The notes under the pieces were generated by a model that saw only the letters and a list, made by a program, of their open reading frames with translations, made no database searches and was not told the origin of the DNA. The position numbers and the translations under genes were made by a program. From Lophium mytilinum (Eukaryota): a stretch of DNA of 64,000 nucleotides. Position 1 is the first letter of the stretch. Every line of letters begins with the position of its first letter. Location: contig MU004181.1 in assembly GCA_010093605.1 (NCBI GenBank), positions 2,046,001 to 2,110,000 on the forward strand. The letters are read 5' to 3'. Positions 8,296 through 25,802 of the stretch are shown here, piece by piece.

Positions 8296-8385
8296 CCTCC
8301 GGGTACCACAGAGTGATGTATGAGCCCGGCTATTGATAATCAGTACGTGTCGCAAGGACCCAAGGTACGACAAACACCCTTCCGA
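8296..8385 (-). repeat. Inverted partial copy of the tRNA-iMet locus at ~9110-9196
   Basis: Reverse complement reads ...TCCTTGCGACACGTACTGATTATCAATAGCCGGGCTCATACATCACTCTGTGGTACCCGGAGG, near-identical to 9134-9196. Confidence 0.9.
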
Positions 8386-8819
8386 AATCATAGACACGTC
8401 GTCATGTCAATGTTCTTTTCTTACTGCCAATCGGCATAATCCGCGTCAAAACCATCGCAGCGGCAATATGGCATATTTACGACATGGTAGCCGGTGGAAA
8501 AGGACGGGAAGGCTTCCTTGGACAAAGATTGGCGATCTAAGAATCTGTGTGCTACTCTAAAGTTGTCCGTACTTGAAGAAGACCGTGACACTCCTACTCA
8601 GGGCTTAGGTATTCTGTATGTGGCTAGCATCGCTGGAGGGCCGCTCGTATGCTATCAATATTTCGAAAACGACAGTTTTGACAAGCCTGATAGCTCGTCG
8701 GGCCACCTCCGACGGTGTCAGACCAGACTGCCACTTTGTGTTCCACAGATCCGCCTGATGGGTTGGTGGTTGGGTGTTCGCGTAGCGAGCCCGCAGTCGC
8801 ATGATTGCAAATTCTTGGC

Positions 8820-9522
8820 TCGTGAAACGCAACTTTGGGCAGCATACACCGGACAAATCCTGCACCTCGTATGATAATGAATTCGTAGCGGCCGATACCG
8901 GCCGGTCAATCATTGTGGGAGGTAATTGGCTCGGCCAATCGCCTTCCACAGTGTCCATTTTTACAGATATCGCTTTGTCACCGTGGAGCTGCAACGATAC
9001 TTATACAGGATGTTTCCTTGGCTCTTCAAAATCACCAGCTCAGTGGCGCAGCGGTAAGAATCAATTTCTGCCTTGAAACATTGCTCTTGCTAAGACTTAA
9101 TAGGAAGCGCGGTATGTTTATCCTACCTTTGGATCCTTGCGACACGTACTGATTATCAATAGCCGGGCTCATACATCACTATGTGGTACCCGGAGGCGAG
9201 TCTGTTGTCACGTGATTGTAAATATGCAGATGCTGTTTGTGAAATGCAACTTTGGGCAGCATACACCGGCCAATAATAGGATAAATACATACTGGTCGAG
9301 ATAGAACGCTCCTTGGGTATCGTTTTCTACCTCGTATGATAATAAATTTGTGCTGGCCGACACCGAGCGGCAGGGCGGACAATCATAGTCGGGTTAGTAG
9401 TAGCCGAACCAATCACTGCCCACACCGGCCACTTATGAAGATGTCGCTTTGTCAGATGTTTTTATCATAGTACTTATTCGTTTCTATTTCTGAGACACTT
9501 CAAATCACAAGCTCAATGGCGG
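8820..9522 (+). repeat. Local direct duplication (~8820-9050 vs ~9240-9522) of the tRNA upstream region; part also present at ~14950-15020
   Basis: Shared GTGAAAYGCAACTTTGGGCAGCATACACCGG, CCTCGTATGATAAT, TCGCTTTGTCA and AAATCAC(C/A)AGCTCA(G/A)TGGCG. Confidence 0.85.
9037..9196 (+). tRNA. tRNA-iMet(CAT) 5' two-thirds, split by two spliceosomal-type introns (9054-9103, 9112-9162) plus a canonical anticodon-loop intron (9174-9187); T arm and 3' acceptor strand not found locally (possible pseudogene)
   Basis: Joined exons give AGCTCAGTGGCGCAGCG+GAAGCGCG+CCGGGCTCATA+ACCCGGAGG, identical to the copy at 15020. Confidence 0.8.
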
Positions 9523-9589
9523 ATGATAGACTTGAGGAAATTCCCTGGGAAAAGAAACGTGGTGAGGAGTAGAGTATGTCCTGGAGACT

Positions 9590-9750
9590 CAGGTTGAGGT
9601 CGGCCTCAACCTACGCTAAACGCGCTTCAACTTACGCACTACGCAAACCTCAACCTACGCAAACCCTCACCCTGTACAAAGCTCAACCTACACAAAGCTC
9701 AACCTATACAGACCTCAACCTGTTCCCTTAACCTCAACCTACGAATACCT
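9590..9750 (+). repeat. Hairpin AGGTTGAGG-TCGG-CCTCAACCT followed by ~8 copies of a ~16-bp CCTCAACCTACGCAAA-like unit; resembles a transposon subterminal region
   Basis: Directly visible repeats. Confidence 0.75.
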
Positions 9751-10590: not shown

Positions 10591-11656
10591 ATATGGTCGT
10601 CTGTTCAGCTTCGTCCAACCATCCTAGCGCACCTGTCTTCTTGCATTATAGCCCTCCACCTCCAAGCAAGAGAGGTCCTTAATCATGAACTAGCCAAACC
10701 TTTATCCATCACTTCTACACTCCACTTTTCGGGGCCGCTGGAATCCCTATGATCAACTGGAACTGACCTTCACGGGCCCCATGCTTCTACAGGCACTCTT
10801 AAGTCAACCGATGTGCCCGAAAGCCAATCAAGTGGTCGATAGATTGTGTAGCAGATGACGCACGGACGGGTCGTTGATATTGCGACACACGTACACCGCT
10901 TTTTGAAGTTTTCGGTCCCCTCCTCCGACTCTCTTACCTCATTGTCTCTTCCAACTTCACCTCTCTAGCAACTCCTCAAGCTTCAACACATCCTCAGACC
11001 GCGCCTCATTTGTCGCTATTCATTAGCGTCTACCAGGAGATGAGCGTCGCTGTACACGTGTCCGCCACTGTGAGGGGCCTCGACACCGTTCAAACCCTCA
11101 GGACAAAGCCTGCGTCCCTCCGTTGAAAACCCGGTAAACTCGCCGCGCTAGCTCAGCCGGCGTTATGTGCCACTCGAAAACTAGGAAGTTTTCCCCATCG
11201 CAGATGTCTGGCTTTTGACCGACTGCACAGCCTTCAGACCAATCCGCCGGGGCTTCGAACCAGTTTGAGCTAGCTTCAGCAGCACGAAGATGGAGGGTCT
11301 TCATAACGTGTTACTCGATCTACGACGTAGCTTTATTTCTAGGCGGCATGCTCCCTCCTCCTAGGCCTGTGTGTGATTTCTTGCTACTGGTACGGGTGCT
11401 TCGACCATGCTCAACCAATCAGAACGAGATGTATGTAAATCGTTTGGGGCATTCTTTCTATCCGCTAAACCGCCTTAGACGACGCTATTTTGCTAAGAAC
11501 GAAACTATGGTGAAGACGAGGCGCTGTGGCATAGTTACGGCCGGTATGGGAAGATGGGGAAGGCACGATGCCGTGGGCCTCAACCACACTCCAACGCCAA
11601 CGTCTCTCCGTCTTCTTTAGACGTGATAACGCATCAACACTCATTTCATTCCCGAA

Positions 11657-13744
11657 ATGGCTGGCAAACGAGGGATGCCCACGGAAATCGAAGCTGGCCT
11701 CGTCGAAGACAGTAGCACGATCCGCAAGCCATTGAAGCGCAAGAAGAGCGGATCAGAGCTCGATCCTAGTAAGTGTCCCTTCAGACTCTAGCCTGACATA
11801 GCATTGCTAACGAAAGGCTCGTAGAAGGAAACCATAGGCGCGCCCGAGCCGAGCATCCTCCCTTCCTCGGACACACCTACGAAGCCGAAGGCGATCCTGA
11901 TGACAACTTCGACGAAGGCTCACTTGGTGATATTAGTGAAGCCCGTCATCTTCGACGAGACCAGCTTCAGACAAGTCTGCAGCAAGTAACACGTTCTTAC
12001 ACGCGCTCGGAATCTTTTCGCGCCGAAATCGAGGAGGAGGCGACGACTGTGCGCTCGTCTGGAAAGCAGCTTGTAACCAGTTTGAAGCCAGTGACTCGGT
12101 CTACCCCTACTTTATCCAATGGTATCAAGAAGACAATTAGCGAGTATCTGGCCGACTTTCTCGAGGAGCGAGATTTCACGGCGTCCTTGGAGCTTGGAAG
12201 AGACAGCCGTGTTCATATAACTCTGTCCTTTCCAAGCACGAGTATGAGCACAATCAGCCTGTTGCCACCGAAGGAGAGTACCAACAGTCAAGCTCTAACA
12301 TTCTTGCCACCAGTGGTCTCCACCGAGGTCGATCCTTGTAAAGTTGTTCCCTCAATCAAGGCGTTGACTGTAGAAGATGGTCTTAGACCCTTTGAAACGA
12401 TCGATGCTCCAACGTCTCTGTCCTTTACTACACCATCATCGAGGTCCCCGTTGGGAACCAAGGCACCTATCGCGAAACGTGGTAGAGGCAGACCCAAGAA
12501 GACAGAGGGAAGAAAGCCTGAAGTCTTAGTCGGGAATGCTCTCATTGGAGGCGAGGGGCTGGGACACGATATGGAGCTCTCTGGCAAGCTAATCGAGTCA
12601 CTTGATGAGACCATGTACTCGTACGACGAAGTCGCCAGCGGCTTTGGGAGTGCATTACTTACATACCCGTTACAAGCTACAGACTGGTCCGGGGGCATGC
12701 AAACTACCCTTGCCATGCCCAAGTCGATTTCAACTCCAGCGGCTCCTCTTTCTACGAAGACTTCGCGTACGGACGACGAGCTACTCGATCCTTGGGCGAA
12801 TTTCTCAGTCTTGAAACGCTACCAGATGGAACCGTCAGTCTTCTCGAATAAAGGCCGCTTTCGTCTTCCTTACCAACACCTCACGGAGAAATCTAAAGAG
12901 CTCCCCCAACCAACGAGAATCAGAAAGACACAGAGTAGGGTGCTGAGGAACAGAGACACCAACCAAATGGTTAAGATCGACTTGAGAGTGGTCTTTGTGG
13001 CTGCCGTAGAGGTCCATCCTATGTCGGCGACAAAGCGAATCATCATCGGATTCACGCGGGCAAGTGGCGAAGCACCAGCATATGGGACTCCTGGAATGAC
13101 TAAGCGGGCTGCTATGGCAGTCAAAGCATTCGCTGATCTGGACGGCGATGCAGGCGTGGTCAAAGTCGCTATACAAAGAACCAAAGTGAGCAGCCGTGCC
13201 TCTTTCTTCGATGACTCGCGCAAAGAGAGGACAGATGCCTATATCGTTGAGATGGTCGCTGTTCTCAACGCCGCCAAGAATGGAAGAGAGGTGGTCTTAC
13301 TTTCAGTTGGAGCGGACGGCTTCACGACGAACGTTGACAACTTTGTCTGGCTTGCAGAAACCTGGCCGCTCCTTGAGCTTAATTTGGTGGTTGTCGTACC
13401 CTCTTGGTTCCCCGGTGATAAGGCTGTATTCCGGGAAGCAACTAATGGTATTCGGTATGGGAGATTCTCTATCAAGCACGTTGCGGCAGCCGTCCTTCAA
13501 AAGGACAGGAGTGGCGCGGTCGGCGAATTACTGCGCGTGTGTGAACAGATCAATATGGGCAAAGAACAGTACGTTCCCCTTCTGTTTCTATGTCGTTCCT
13601 GGCTAATGTTACTATTGTAGCTTGGAGAACCGCCCTACCTTGACTACTATGACTTCCCATCGCTCAACCTTTCGAATTCATCCAGACACCGAGGACGACG
13701 ACGGCGTCGGCCCTGAGCTTCGCAAGTCTCGCGCCCGTCACTGA
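11657..13744 (+). CDS. AT-hook protein with a serine-recombinase(resolvase)-like C-terminal domain; exons 11657-11768, 11825-13568, 13621-13744
   Basis: Two GT-AG introns with GCTAAC/GCTAAT branch points keep the frame. KRGRGRPKK AT-hook. IIIGFTRASG...VSSR...VVLLSVGADGFTTN follows the resolvase GYxRVS...SG...DRLxR layout. Confidence 0.6.
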
Positions 13745-15019
13745 ACATACCACCATACTACTTGTCGCAGTTACCCTTGATCTCGATTACATCGAGTGAC
13801 ACGTTGTCCCCTTCATATGGCTTCAAACCGGTTTGAAGCAGAATACTCTCTGTACTCCTTGTGAGTAGCGTTTCAGTATCCCTAACCCCATTCTCGAAGC
13901 TAATCAAGTAACTTGATAGTTCCTTCACGAATCCCATACTGCCACTGCATACTCGTGCGATACTATCTCCATCGCGGAGCGCTCTCTGCGACTCGGCTTT
14001 TCGGAGATCTTATCTTTGCCCTCAAACCGGTTCGTGACAAGATGCGGATGTATTTTCTGTCTCCCTTGACTAATTGCTCATAGACAGGGATGTCTTTTCA
14101 CTTTCGGCGCTTGCGAGGCTTGTGGCGCCTATTTCGTACCCCTCTATTCATTATATCAGAACCTCAACACGACAAATCGACAATTTCAAAGCTTTTCAAA
14201 TCCTCGAATATGCGTTATCTCTCGCGCCCAGCATCCCGGATAGACCAAACGTCCCTCCTTGCTATATTCAACCCTTTTGAGGATATATGCAGCGAGTGAT
14301 GGACTGTCAGGGTGGTCCTACTGAACTTTGTTAAGATAATGTCTTTACAGACTAGTCTGTAGAAAGTAATCACGACTTAGCGTTACACAGCAACATGTAT
14401 CCTGATCAAAATACAATCGTGTCATAAATATGAATGTCGCTTTCAATTCCTCAGGGGTGCACTTATTCACCACTGTTCGCAGCGCCTTTCAAAGCAGTGT
14501 GAGAGATTATGATGTGACCCTGAAGTTTCGACGGCGAGAGTTAGCCCTGGACGAGAAGTAGTTCTTGGAGCTGTTAAAGCTATTGTTTGGGGTGCTTTGG
14601 GCCGTCCTGAGTCATGGAAATGTAACGTTTGATGATTGATGTTCAAATCAGGCTTTGCGGAGTTGAGATAGATGCAAGAACGTGAATCACCTGACTGCTG
14701 ATGTTCTAGGTGAGTTGTCACTTTTCAGGTAGGATTTGGAGCCCCCGGGCACCGTTCTAGTAATCAGGTTTGTGAGCGTGTTCGTTGAATATACTAATGA
14801 TACAGTAAGTAGCTACAGGATGTACCAGCTTCAAACTAGTATCAAGGTCCGAGAGCCAAGAATCGAGCTATGGATTTTGAAGTGCCGGCCGACATCGGCA
14901 TGAGCGCCGAACCGAACATTTAGGATATAGCCCACGCCCCACTAATACGAATATCGCTTTGTCACAGTAAATTGAGTAGGTACTTATAAGAGATAATTTC
15001 TTGGCTCTCCAAAATCATC

Positions 15020-15154
15020 AGCTCAGTGGCGCAGCGGAAGCGCGCCGGGCTCATATACAATATGTGCTACCCGGAGGACTGCGGTAAGTCAGCGTCTAAA
15101 TTTGGAGTTCGAATCCCACTAAGACCATATCAGGATCGAAACCGCACTGAGCTA
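15020..15154 (+). tRNA. Initiator tRNA-Met(CAT) with a canonical intron (15056-15068) and a 50-nt spliceosomal-type intron in the T stem (15084-15133)
   Basis: Spliced form AGCTCAG TG GCGC AGCGGAA GCGC G CCGGG CTCATAA CCCGG AGGAC TGCGG ATCGAAA CCGCA CTGAGCT A = 72 nt, all four stems fully paired. A1-U72, ATCGAAA T loop and GGG/CCC anticodon stem are initiator hallmarks. T tracts follow. Confidence 0.92.
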
Positions 15155-15272
15155 GATCGCATTATACTTTTTGCATTTCTTTTTCTCCCGAGGTGTTTTC
15201 AAGTCCTTTTTTTTCTCATCTTTTTGCTCTCTTGCTTTATTATGACTGGTCTTTTTGACTTCTTCTTGGTTC

Positions 15273-15397
15273 ACTGCGGATCGAAACCGCACTGAGCTAT
15301 TCTAGCATTCTTTTTGCTTTTTAGATGTTCTTTTGGTCTTCTCTAGGCTTGTGGGCGCCCTACGAAGGGTGGCGAGCTATCGAAACCACACTGAGCT
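15273..15397 (+). repeat. Two extra copies of the tRNA-iMet 3' end (15273-15299 intact and intronless; 15379-15397 degenerate)
   Basis: ACTGCGGATCGAAACCGCACTGAGCTA and ATCGAAACCACACTGAGCT, each followed by T-rich sequence. Confidence 0.9.
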
Positions 15398-16683
15398 GAA
15401 TCTCGTCACTCTTCTAGCATTTTCTCTCATTCCAGGGCGCTCCCAACATCCTGGCAGCTTCATCTTTTTGTTTCTGTTGCGTTATTGCTTTATGACTAGC
15501 CCTTGCGAATTTTTTTGTGGGTTCGTAGGCGGGGCATTCCTGAGTGCGGGACCCCCACCATGAATGCCACCACACGCGAACTGACAACTTTAGCATTACA
15601 AAACACTTCGAACATTTTCTTCGAGGGTATTGGAAGAAGTTCGAGCTATAATTATGGTATACGGGAATGGCTTATAGCATCAACTTTTGAAGTGATGTTT
15701 ATAACTTCAATTTCGCTCCCCGGGAGTCATTTGGCACGCAACCTGTACACTGTTCCTTACAGTGTATGTACATCCGCAAGGCCGAACATTCCTCATATTT
15801 TCATATCAACTATCTGAATAGGCCCAAATGTTCATGGCTAGTGTGCAGTTCAGATGAGAATAATCTAAAGTAGCAATTTTCCAGCGCCTAGCTATTTATT
15901 TCTCCACCCTCCAACATCCCTCTTCGGGTATTGGGAGTGCTCGATACGCCGTTAGTCCGTGAATTAACTACGCTCAACATCTGAAAGATCATCCACAAGT
16001 CTACATGCAGGTGCCGCTGTCTGTAGTGGCCTGGTAACCTGATCGATTGTTCAAAAAGGCTCACTTCTGCCTGGATTTGAACTTTGAAAATTCATTGGCG
16101 CACTTCAGACGGTGTCAGACAAGTGTACATATTTATCTCCGAATGTAGGAGAAAGAAGTCGCTCCCAGCTTGAGATTGCGAGTCATCGCGAGTTTTATGA
16201 GGGTTTTAGAGTGCCCAACGCTCTCTGTCCATTCTCTAGATTTGTGCATGCCAAAAATCATTAATCCAATAGCACAATAGCTTCCTGATTTGCATGTGAG
16301 CCATGACGCACAGCCATCAACCCCTCAGGGACCCACAGGGGCAGTTGAAAAACAGATGAGAGCTCAATATTCTCTCCTATAAATAGGTGAATCGACATAG
16401 TATCGTGGCATATGTAAGTAGTGCAAACGATCATTCGCTCTGCCCGAGTTTCGATCTTGGTTCACTCAAAGAAACCGACTCTACGGCGGAGCGCAATCTT
16501 GGAATAGAACCTTGAGGCTAGATCCAGACATGCCAAGCCTGTGTTCAATTCAAGGGTGCGAACACAGCTGGATATATCAGGGTCCAAGATATTTGTAGAA
16601 TACAAATTCGTCCTTTACTGCGATCTAAGTCGTGGTCGTGATGCTCGATTACAGAATTTGGACTTGACACTGGGTTCTCGAGT

Positions 16684-16732
16684 TGACTTACCGCAGCCTT
16701 CCGGGTAGCACATAGCGTATATGAGCCTGGCG
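16684..16732 (-). repeat. Inverted partial copy of tRNA-iMet 15043-15091
   Basis: Reverse complement CGCCAGGCTCATATACGCTATGTGCTACCCGGAAGGCTGCGGTAAGTCA. Confidence 0.9.
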
Positions 16733-17438
16733 ATGTTATGATCAGAGAGGACGTAGAGTAAGAGAGCTACCTGAAAAGCTTTGATACCTAGCCCAACGAG
16801 CTGTTGAAGATGACGAAGTAGCCCTGGGTCGCAGTGACCTTAGAACCTTGGAGCCACCCCACAACCCCTCAGCCGGCAGCCGAGCGCCTCTGGAGCTCGT
16901 CGCCCACCTGTCATCCGTCGCCCATCACCCGCCGTCTGCCTGTCTGTCGCTTCTGCAGTCCATTCTTTGCCTAACCGTAAACTTTCCACCGTGACGATCT
17001 GTCGGAACTTCTCCCCTCGCGCCCTCTCTCTACGACCTCGCGTGCCCAACGAACCAGCCAGCGCACTCCAACACGTCACCCGCGGCAAGACACCCAGTCG
17101 CAGCCAGGACGCAGAGGATATCAGCCTGAAAGAAAAGCTATCTAAGCTGTCGGCGTCCGCCTGGGGCACTTGAGTAGCCGGTAGACTGCTGCCACGACAC
17201 GCTGTGAGCCGCATTCATTACCGCCACAAGCTCCGTCTCGTCTTCACCACCACACCACGCACAACGACTAACTGGCTAGGATTCACATCATAGCCCTGAT
17301 ACCCCCGAAACCTCTGCGCCATCCCGCTCGAGAAAACCAGACGCCTTCCCTGCACATCAGCGCGTTCGCCAGACCGATCTCTTTCCCTCCTTGTCCACTG
17401 CTGCATATCAGCTATCCACTCATCCTCCGGAACTCGCC

Positions 17439-24745: not shown

Positions 24746-24909
24746 TGCGCTATGTCAGCAAGAAGTGTGAAGATAGGTTGCCAATGTTTCACAAAAAGCT
24801 GAAGGCTGGAGTTGAACCATTTCCACCGGCTCATTTACCGTCCACTTCCGTTTACCACACTAACCGCCTTAGTCGACGAAGGCACGTGTCAATAAGAAAG
24901 CCTCCTATC

Positions 24910-25141
24910 CACGCGGGGCATGAAAAAGGTGGCACACTCAACCCGCATTTGCCTCTTATACACTTGTCTGCCGCTGTTTGGGGTACTTCAATACATCTTT
25001 TAAACGGTAGAAGAGATAGAACCTCTTAGTTTTGGGCTATCTGAAAACCTGCTGAAGCACTCCAGCAGTGGCAGACAGGTGTACACACGACCGCAAAAGA
25101 TAGATCCTGATGAGTGTGCCACTTTTTATATGCCTAGCGTG
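24910..25141. repeat. Nested inverted-repeat (fold-back/MITE-like) element; relatives at ~38536-38710 and ~40711-40893
   Basis: Outer arms GCATGAAAAAGGTGGCACACTCA / TGAGTGTGCCACTTTTTATATGC; inner arms TACACTTGTCTGCCGCTG / CAGTGGCAGACAGGTGTA. Confidence 0.85.
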
Positions 25142-25802
25142 CTATCCTCGATGCAGTGCTTCTTCTGACTGCACTTCCAATATACCGATGACGCTCGATT
25201 TAATCTGCTCCGACGAGCAACAAGCAGACACTCGAAGTAATGGCAAGGGCGCGAGACTTCGCCGAGAGATGGCCGCATCCTGGTTCAAGAACAACAAAGT
25301 AGCCAGTCAAGGGCATTCTGCCCTGCTGATCTCACTCCTAGCTTCTCCGGATTACTTACAGCTGCGCCCTACAGCATTTTCGGTATTGCGAGTCTTCCTT
25401 GCGCAGTAGGTGGCTTTAGTCAGCGATGCAAAGCCATTGGACCATTGTCAGACATGAGGATTAGAAACCTCGGGAATAAACTATGGCATCATCGCCACCA
25501 ATCCGCAAACGTGAGGGGAACGTCAACGACGTCGTTTGATGACCAAAGTCGTTAATTTCTAATCCAAACACCACATATATAACCAGCGCAAACAGCTCGG
25601 TATTTAAACATCATCTATCAAGTCTCTAGCATCAGCCTCTTCACTTCATCTACCGCATTACTAGATTCCATTGTCCACAATCATCTCTCACAGCTCAAGT
25701 CACATCAATCTCACAACGTTTTCGAGAACTACACTGAAAGCTCTTCCAAAGCTTCATCCTCTGCATCCCCATATATCCAAACCAACCCTCTTCAAATCCA
25801 CA

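Follow-up and report, generated by a model that had tools for sequence, protein, structure and literature searches.

Can a tRNA gene be host to introns of the spliceosomal type, and is a tRNA still made from such a gene? This question is raised by positions 9037-9196 of a stretch of 64,000 nucleotides from Lophium mytilinum (this whole stretch is what we call here the window), where four exon pieces of an initiator tRNA-Met are accompanied by two GT..AG insertions and by one intron at the canonical position 37/38. The window is otherwise ordinary gene-dense eukaryotic DNA, encoding an SNF1-type kinase, an aldehyde dehydrogenase, a UBE2O-like enzyme, COG8/Dor1, IFRD, NOT3, and a Nop domain. Five pieces derived from the initiator tRNA, which we name copies A to E, lie together within 8.5 kb, the one at 9037-9196 being copy A. 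Our answer, to which we give a probability of about 70%, is that copy A is a truncated paralogue, dead or recently dead, of an initiator tRNA family whose functional members carry spliceosomal introns.

Anatomy of the split tRNA copy

Copy A lies on the forward strand and starts with exon 1 (9037-9053, tRNA positions 1-18), followed by a first spliceosomal-type intron of 50 nt (9054-9103, GTAAGA..CTAAG..TAG), inserted at tRNA position 18/19 (G18|G19). Next come a micro-exon of only 8 nt (9104-9111, positions 19-26), a second spliceosomal-type intron of 51 nt (9112-9162, GTATGT..CTGAT..TAG) inserted at 26/27 (G26|C27), and exon 3 with the anticodon CAT (9163-9173, positions 27-37). A tRNA-type intron of 14 nt at the canonical position 37/38, which is without GT..AG (9174-9187), precedes exon 4 (9188-9196, positions 38-46), where the match to a tRNA ends. 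Once the exons are joined, the junctions read CAGCG|GAAGCGCG|CCGGG. The two introns and the micro-exon had been proposed in an earlier, sequence-only reading of this DNA, every coordinate of which was confirmed. The branch motifs, CTAAG in intron 1 and CTGAT in intron 2, stand 10-15 nt ahead of the TAG acceptor; the first of them agrees with CTRAY at four of five positions, and the same motif is present in the intron of copy C that was seen spliced.

The same reading had held that the exons exactly match those of the copy at 15020 (copy C), and this is the case for 45 of 45 bases: 17/17 in exon 1 (compared with 15020-15036), 8/8 in the micro-exon, 11/11 in exon 3, and 9/9 in exon 4. The canonical introns of the two copies are identical at 10 of 12 positions, and their upstream 100 nt at 70 of 92 aligned columns.

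Eukaryotic initiator tRNAs-Met are recognized by a CAT anticodon whose stem is closed by three G:C pairs, by an A1:U72 pair, and, within the T loop, by A54 and A60. In copy A, CAT and the anticodon stem CCGGG/CCCGG are supplied jointly by exon 3 (CCGGGCTCATA) and exon 4 (ACCCGGAGG). The copy also has A1, but the T arm and the 3' strand of the acceptor stem are missing, and with them the A1:U72 pair and the A54 and A60 hallmarks; positions 1-46, or the first two thirds of the tRNA, are all that this locus holds, and a full cloverleaf cannot be formed from it. Similarly, the A box (TGGCGCAGCGG) is intact in the DNA, since intron 1 begins with a G, and the B box and the terminator are absent, so that copy A does not make up a type-2 unit for RNA polymerase III (Pol III). 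Further upstream there are two conserved elements on the same strand: the block ATATCGCTTTGTCAC (8967-8981), common to copies A and C and with one change in copy B, and a TATA-like block (TACTTATA, 8998-9009), located some 35 nt ahead of the first tRNA base in both copy A and copy C, which would act as a promoter element.

ARAGORN without introns finds no tRNA anywhere in the 64-kb window, and neither does Rfam within the same window, be it at the gathering score or at E values up to 10; the weak Rfam matches obtained (MIR821 and similar) are unrelated.

The pieces are small, which is the one point in favour of a chance resemblance, or of mobile introner copies that landed in a pseudogene. We regard this as extremely unlikely. 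The exons match exactly, few places in the window are hit by the 17-mer and 21-mer exon probes, and apart from copy E these 64 kb hold no second occurrence of the intron sequences. Moreover, the insertion boundaries, which are unique GT..AG parses, show neither target-site duplications nor terminal repeats. By a rough estimate, two such insertions would arise by chance with a probability of about 1e-7.

An intact paralogue and its RNA

Copy C is a complete initiator tRNA-Met gene on the forward strand (15020-15154), with a 37/38 intron of 13 nt (15056-15068) and a GT..AG intron of 50 nt (15084-15133) at tRNA position 52/53, within the T stem. The intron positions of the paralogues do differ, as had been noticed, copy A being interrupted at 18/19 and 26/27 and copy C at 52/53. 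A repeated gain of introns, for which the earlier reading gave reverse splicing as an example, may account for such differences, and so may intron loss. Copy C has the A1:T72 pair, the T loop ATCGAAA, an A box, a B box, and a downstream T run, the latter being a T5 run resembling a Pol III terminator that lies 14 nt behind the gene (15168-15172). The spliced sequence fits a cloverleaf at -31.3 kcal/mol, compared with a minimum free energy of -32.8 kcal/mol. When introns are allowed, ARAGORN joins the 5' half of copy C to an orphan tRNA piece at 15279 through a "208-nt intron", a mis-call that we rejected.

Evidence that the GT..AG intron is removed comes from a 468-nt contig of X3, a sequencing run that is probably one of RNA; this contig joins 15082 to 15133, thus skipping 50 nt with GT..AG ends, and in which the copy C intron is removed precisely. 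The nature of X3 as RNA was judged from its spliced contigs, one of which, of 3440 nt, skips the five GT..AG introns of a neighbouring gene. The splicing of copy C is documented by one contig from one run, and the strain concerned might conceivably carry an allele that lacks the intron. The 37/38 intron was retained in the same contig, as indicated by the 55 contiguous bases that stand 5' of the joint. At its other end the contig reaches 15543, running through the T5 and a T9 run to 390 nt beyond the tRNA end, and this fits transcription by RNA polymerase II (Pol II), or read-through, better than a clean Pol III termination. X3 contigs do not cover 8974-9210, the nearest one starting at 9214, and they have no bearing on the expression of copy A.

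The neighbouring gene (10916-14518) provides a local standard for what an intron looks like in this DNA. Its five RNA-defined introns are 48-59 nt long, with GT[ATGC]NGT donors, CTAA[ACT] branch motifs, and TAG acceptors, and introns around here generally fall within that range, except for one of 171 nt on the minus strand. With 50 and 51 nt, the copy A introns lie inside the range, and the insertions fit the local intron type because both their size and their signals match those of the five introns.

Split initiator tRNA genes in metagenomes

The double-intron layout of copy A, with its exact sites and exon letters, was found at no locus in a metagenome scan. A second, single scan used a pattern with 20 fixed bases, consisting of the anticodon region plus a canonical intron of 8-30 nt, and therefore required a 37/38 intron; it returned at least 120 loci, many of the genes being mutually related. 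The matches listed comprise 61 eukaryote-type initiator tRNA genes (35 distinct and 26 duplicates), 41 archaeal-type loci, and 18 others that are chance or cut matches. Insertions were located with a spliced aligner that gives no reward for GT..AG.

Among the matches listed, 27 of the 35 distinct eukaryote-type genes carry insertions outside 37/38. A GT..AG parse was obtained for 25 of these 27 insertion blocks, with lengths of 49-57 nt, and for the same matches a GT..AG or GC..AG parse was obtained in none of the 35 canonical-site introns. CTRAY is present in all 25 GT..AG blocks listed, and in 24 of them it lies no more than 17 nt from the 3' end. Two genes were parsed by hand: L045, whose block reads GT..AG if position 26 may be an A, and L059, which shows a GC..AG insertion, then an exon of 3 nt, and then a GT..AG insertion.

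Regarding their location, the insertions in the matches listed are found at 4/5 (one gene), at 15/16 and 19/20 (both in L059), at 18/19 (two genes, L062 and L073), at 22/23 (19 genes), at 25/26 (two genes), at 26/27 (one gene, L045), and at 46/47 (one gene, L021). Counting the 52/53 site of copy C, there are at least nine insertion sites within 72 nt. The sites of L062 and L073 and of L045 are those of copy A introns 1 and 2, respectively, and the site of L021 is the point where copies A and E stop. The earlier proposal that the insertions are of spliceosomal type, and not the product of chance, is hence borne out twice, by the excision of the copy C intron in an RNA contig and by the recurrence of both copy A sites in metagenome genes.

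These numbers also bear on the alternative that the insertions are removed by the tRNA endonuclease through folds of the bulge-helix-bulge kind, or that in copy A they just persist, unremoved, in a dead gene. Cases of several non-canonical introns in tRNA genes that the endonuclease deals with are well documented, as far as the sections of PMC3978253 and PMC4090602 on this subject go, and the RNA support described above concerns copy C and not copy A. Against this stand the exact GT..AG ends of the listed matches (25/27 as opposed to 0/35 at the canonical site), together with their branch motifs and their length of 49-57 nt, and the X3 contig, which has lost the GT..AG intron yet keeps the endonuclease-type one. 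We consider this alternative very improbable.

A family of 13 genes from the scan allows us to compare the constraints acting on the different parts of such genes. Over its 78 pairs, identity is 98% in the exons, 74% in the GT..AG introns, 55% in the canonical introns, and 63% in the upstream region, with compensatory changes in the T stem. This conservation of the exons, plus the compensatory changes, points to the 13 members being working genes under selection. With introns allowed, ARAGORN reports a CAT tRNA in none of the 27 split genes listed, as compared with six of the eight genes having only a canonical intron, and this would account for their being overlooked. The environmental genomes that carry these intron-bearing initiator tRNA genes are probably fungal.

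Proposed transcription and processing

The arrangement of promoter and termination signals gives some indication of how these genes would be expressed. In the matches listed, a run of at least five T is found within 40 nt downstream in 32 of the 35 genes, and a run of at least four T in all 35. Runs of four or more T are absent from the 25 listed introns, whereas shuffles lead one to expect 3.9 (P 0.0135, for loci that are not independent of one another). A TATAW motif is present between -45 and -15 in 12 of the 35 genes listed. The introns are placed at G|G and thereby leave the A box of copy A and the B box of copy C intact in the DNA.

In addition, the introns of the 3' half have a feature of their own. 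Among the matches listed, GTTCGANNC is present in both of the two introns of the 3' half, whereas all 26 of the 5' half lack it; in the window it occurs at a rate of 7e-5 per base. These two introns, those of copy C and L021 and the only ones of this kind among the matches listed, both contain GTTCGAATC, which is B-box-like and lies at 15107-15115 on the forward strand, inside the copy C GT..AG intron. GTTCGAATC fits the tRNA B-box consensus better than the T loop of the initiator itself does.

From these elements, three steps can be proposed. Intact members would be transcribed first, probably by Pol III, as suggested by the TATA-like block, the intact A and B boxes, the introns free of T4 runs, and the T5 runs just downstream; Pol II transcription of these loci is also possible. 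The spliceosome would then remove the GT..AG introns, a role suggested by the splicing signals, with precise excision seen in copy C. Finally, the ends would be trimmed, and the 37/38 intron would be removed by the tRNA endonuclease and the ends joined by the ligase. That the spliceosome acts before the endonuclease is suggested by the RNA that is without the GT..AG intron and still has the 37/38 intron.

The read-through seen in X3 gives room to another view, in which the tRNA-like pieces would be exons of non-coding Pol II transcripts, with tRNA output being incidental or absent. The contig with the spliced copy C runs far past the tRNA end, and a second X3 contig covers 9214-9706, directly behind copy A. 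However, what the metagenome genes conserve is only the 72 tRNA bases, including compensatory stem changes, with flanks at 63%; the T runs follow closely in nearly all of the genes listed, and the spliced copy C product folds as a cloverleaf. Furthermore, Pol II transcription and tRNA production can coexist. We therefore deem transcripts of that kind distinctly unlikely to be the reason for these pieces, and maintain that they belong to a tRNA gene family with spliceosomal introns.

Truncation of copy A and decay of other copies

The last bases of copy A coincide with a repeat boundary. Positions 8786-9195, on the forward strand, form the first unit of a tandem repeat, with the promoter-like upstream region and copy A, and a second unit in the same orientation (9196-9640) contains the decayed copy B. 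The two are identical at 278 of 357 aligned columns, with 178 gap columns, and include the direct repeat families D2-D4. This roughly 410-bp tandem duplication places the start of the next unit where copy A ends, at tRNA position 46. The hexamer GCGAGT, which follows exon 4 and had been taken as a possible third donor, is not supported as such, and a GC-AG donor is rejected at this point, because the sequence from 9196 onward is that of the next repeat unit, homologous to 8786 onward. The truncation at position 46, which had also been proposed, follows from the presence of unit 2 from 9196 onward and from the local lack of the 3' part; no 3' exon that would complete copy A was found within the window.

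The other copies are in different states of decay. In copy B (9510-9521, forward strand), exon 1 is still represented by 11 of 12 bases, and everything else is gone. Copy E (8296-8445, minus strand) is an inverted, decayed copy of the A type, which also ends at tRNA position 46; its 3' 68 nt are 97% complementary to 9129-9196, and the end of exon 4 in copy A is also the end of the inverted repeat arm. The 3' 34 nt of copy A intron 2 recur in copy E, and intron 1 has no second occurrence in the 64-kb window. Copy D (16440-16733, minus strand) is a decayed copy of the C type, with a GTAAGT donor still present where copy C has its own. There are two orphan 3' pieces as well: one at 15273-15299 on the forward strand, which holds tRNA positions 47-73 uninterrupted, and a weaker one at 15378-15398. 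Other tRNA 9-12-mers (near 1678, 22500, 24011, 32591, and 36531/36854) are chance matches, mostly in coding sequence, and the other B-box-like T arms in the window are not tRNA-like.

As positions 1-46 alone cannot give a tRNA, copy A would be a dead gene or one that died only recently. That it died long ago is hard to reconcile with its perfect exons: the tandem sister unit is identical at 278 of 357 columns and has lost its tRNA part, while copy A retains 45 of 45 exon bases. If copy A had been dead since the duplication, with about 10% divergence per lineage, zero changes in 45 bases would be expected, by our estimate, in about 1 of 100 to 1 of 200 cases. A near-identical tract of 68 nt is common to copies A and E, which shows that gene conversion or recent copying acts here. 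The depth in the bin 8974-9210 is fully covered by four listed contigs, and since these account for the depth, a further A-type copy as the donor of a conversion is not indicated.

Perfect exons after what looks like an old duplication are also what would be expected if copy A still worked, its spliced 5' part of 45 nt being joined to a distant 3' part such as the orphan at 15273-15299, be it through a very long intron, by trans-splicing, or in a genome isomer outside the assembly. The fragments A and E end at 46, the intron-less orphan begins at exactly 47, and L021 has a real-looking intron at 46/47; all of these would suit such a junction. Nevertheless, the orphan piece is not preceded by AG, and no GT follows 9196. 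Between 9196 and the orphan lie 6 kb with an expressed, spliced gene and copy C, in a region where introns, with the single 171-nt exception, measure 48-59 nt. By eye, no complementarity is seen between the trailer of copy A and the leader of the orphan, and no contig joins across the stretch between them. Neither were 9-mers of the missing 3' part found on the forward strand between 9197 and 15068. We thus hold the completion of copy A to be unlikely and retain the truncated paralogue as our reading. It is a coincidence worth recording that copies A and E end at 46, that the orphan starts at 47, and that the L021 intron sits at 46/47.

Significance

A wider reading, taken as a whole, has in our opinion slightly better than even odds. 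According to it, a broad set of fungi would make their initiator tRNA from genes with true spliceosomal introns, undescribed and invisible to tRNA finders, with at least nine sites in 72 nt, up to two introns per gene, and micro-exons of 3-8 nt. One and the same precursor would be a substrate of the spliceosome as well as of the tRNA endonuclease; the introns of the 3' half are predicted to carry their own consensus B box for TFIIIC; and the paralogues A (18/19 and 26/27) and C (52/53) would record a recent turnover of introns. If this is true, a tRNA that needs the spliceosome would represent a new class of substrate, one that ties the initiation of translation to the splicing capacity of the cell, and nine sites in 72 nt would offer a compact natural system for testing how introns are gained, lost, or shifted. 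There is also a gap in annotation, given that genomes of this kind may appear to be without initiator tRNA genes when ARAGORN, even with introns, finds none of the 27 split genes among the matches listed.

A search of the open-access literature brought up no paper that describes tRNA genes with spliceosomal introns. The relevant sections of PMC3879985 and PMC6108506 contain nothing on the subject, the covered portion of PMC4090602 has no word starting with "spliceosom", and PMC12530127 and PMC10275265, in their pertinent passages, handle spliceosomal and tRNA introns as separate systems, each with transcripts of its own to act on. As far as open-access searches reach, the class described here would extend a known kind of intron to a host from which it had not been reported.

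Comparison with known systems

Like copy A, the truncated tRNA pseudogenes found in duplications are incomplete: it is without the T arm and the 3' strand of the acceptor stem, and it lies amid the decayed copies B, D, and E. Contrary to such pseudogenes, its exons are still perfect and its intron layout is absent from the intact copy.

Non-canonical, multiple, split, and permuted tRNA genes have been described in archaea, Cyanidioschyzon, and nucleomorphs (PMC3978253; PMC4090602, in the sections dealing with them). As in the genes of this study, the interruptions lie in the D arm, the anticodon stem, the variable region, or the T arm, several introns can occur in one gene, and standard tRNA finders miss them. 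According to the same sections, however, those introns form bulge-helix-bulge structures cut by the endonuclease, whereas the ones reported here have GT..AG ends, a branch motif, and the length of mRNA introns.

Among conserved small RNA genes, those of the fungal U3 snoRNA have spliceosomal introns of normal appearance at lineage-specific positions, as the pertinent part of PMC5832005 describes, which makes them similar to the tRNA genes; there, the introns cluster in one 5' stem-loop, and here insertion sites occur all along the tRNA.

The nearest parallels are provided by the U6 snRNA and by the rRNA genes of fungi. The passages of PMC5855946 on non-coding hosts of spliceosomal introns give the U6, U2, U5, and U1 snRNA genes and the rRNA genes as such hosts, with mRNA-type introns in the U6 genes of Schizosaccharomyces pombe and other fungi, as well as in U1, U2, and U5. 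For the snRNA genes they cite Tani and Ohshima (1989, 1991), Takahashi (1993, 1996), and Frendewey (1990), and they name reverse splicing as a possible origin of the introns. The U6 gene is, like the tRNA genes, a Pol III-type gene for a small structural RNA with a short GT..AG intron and a branch site. To judge from the title of Frendewey (1990), as listed in PMC5855946, the Schizosaccharomyces U6 introns hold a match to the B box, as the introns of copy C and L021 do with GTTCGAATC. On the other hand, and contrary to U6, a tRNA takes no part in the spliceosome; its genes have up to two introns each, with micro-exons of 8 nt (copy A) or 3 nt (L059) and at least nine sites in 72 nt, and a tRNA-endonuclease-type intron lies within the same precursor.

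Spliceosomal introns of rRNA genes measure about 50-70 nt and are linked to lichen-forming fungi. Those in the nuclear rRNA genes of ascomycetes (Bhattacharya et al. 2000, as cited in the same passages of PMC5855946) resemble the introns reported here in occupying, at many sites, a structural RNA gene of fungi that is not a Pol II gene, with the difference that their rRNA host is a Pol I transcript.

The transcript of copy C and the pieces behind it

Copy C is a complete initiator tRNA-Met gene (15020-15154, plus strand), carrying both a tRNA-type intron at tRNA position 37/38 and, within the T stem, a GT..AG intron (15084-15133). In one RNA contig that reaches window position 15543, from X3, a sequencing run taken as RNA on the strength of its spliced contigs, the T-stem intron has been removed and the 37/38 intron is still present. 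The same contig continues for 390 nt beyond the tRNA end, across runs of five and nine T residues.

Two orphan 3' tRNA pieces lie in tandem downstream of copy C (15273-15299 and 15378-15398), with trailers that resemble each other. The first of them begins exactly at tRNA position 47 and has no T-stem intron, and it is therefore ruled out as a copy of copy C.

Another X3 contig, the one that skips the introns of the plus-strand gene, also skips a 171-nt minus-strand intron at 14519-14690 (CT..AC on the plus strand), which suggests overlapping convergent transcripts.

Repeats around the initiator tRNA paralogues

A 15-nt block, ATATCGCTTTGTCAC, is conserved around 55-70 nt ahead of copy C (14953-14967), of the paralogue at 9037-9196 that ends at tRNA position 46 (copy A; block at 8967-8981) and of the decayed copy B at about 9510 (block at 9446-9460). 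Directly behind copy B, a 27-nt repeat of the CTCAACCTACGCAAACC type occurs in five imperfect copies (9595-9749). Copy A and the inverted, decayed copy E supply the two 68-nt arms of an inverted repeat (9129-9196 in copy A, 8296-8363 in copy E), which are 97% complementary and 765 nt apart. If both arms are transcribed together, they could pair into a long hairpin; the repeat could also allow inversion isomers. A short element within 8667-8747 is present in many copies genome-wide: contig depth is about 950 versus about 150, and many contigs match over 45-63 nt and then diverge.

Elsewhere in the window, a region of about 258 nt (24897-25154) gives weak Rfam matches to miRNA precursors on both strands, suggesting a long palindromic hairpin.

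A shared motif and unusual splits in metagenomic genes

Both known GT..AG introns of the 3' half of the tRNA, those of copy C and of the metagenomic locus L021, contain the B-box-like motif GTTCGAATC (15107-15115 in copy C); all 26 5'-half introns among the matches listed lack it. The two 3'-half introns match at 37 of 59 alignment columns, including every base of the motif.

Among the metagenomic initiator tRNA genes, L051 has a GT..AG intron at position 4/5, within the acceptor stem, leaving a first exon of 4 nt. In L059, parsed by hand, two introns apparently interrupt the D loop, the first GC..AG and the second GT..AG, with a 3-nt micro-exon (CGG) between them; a 28-nt tRNA-type intron at 37/38 is also present. 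In archaeal-type initiator tRNA genes, including L028, L030, L076 and L105, the anticodon-loop intron is accompanied by another insertion, located in the T loop or arm; these genes belong to the known multi-intron archaeal type.
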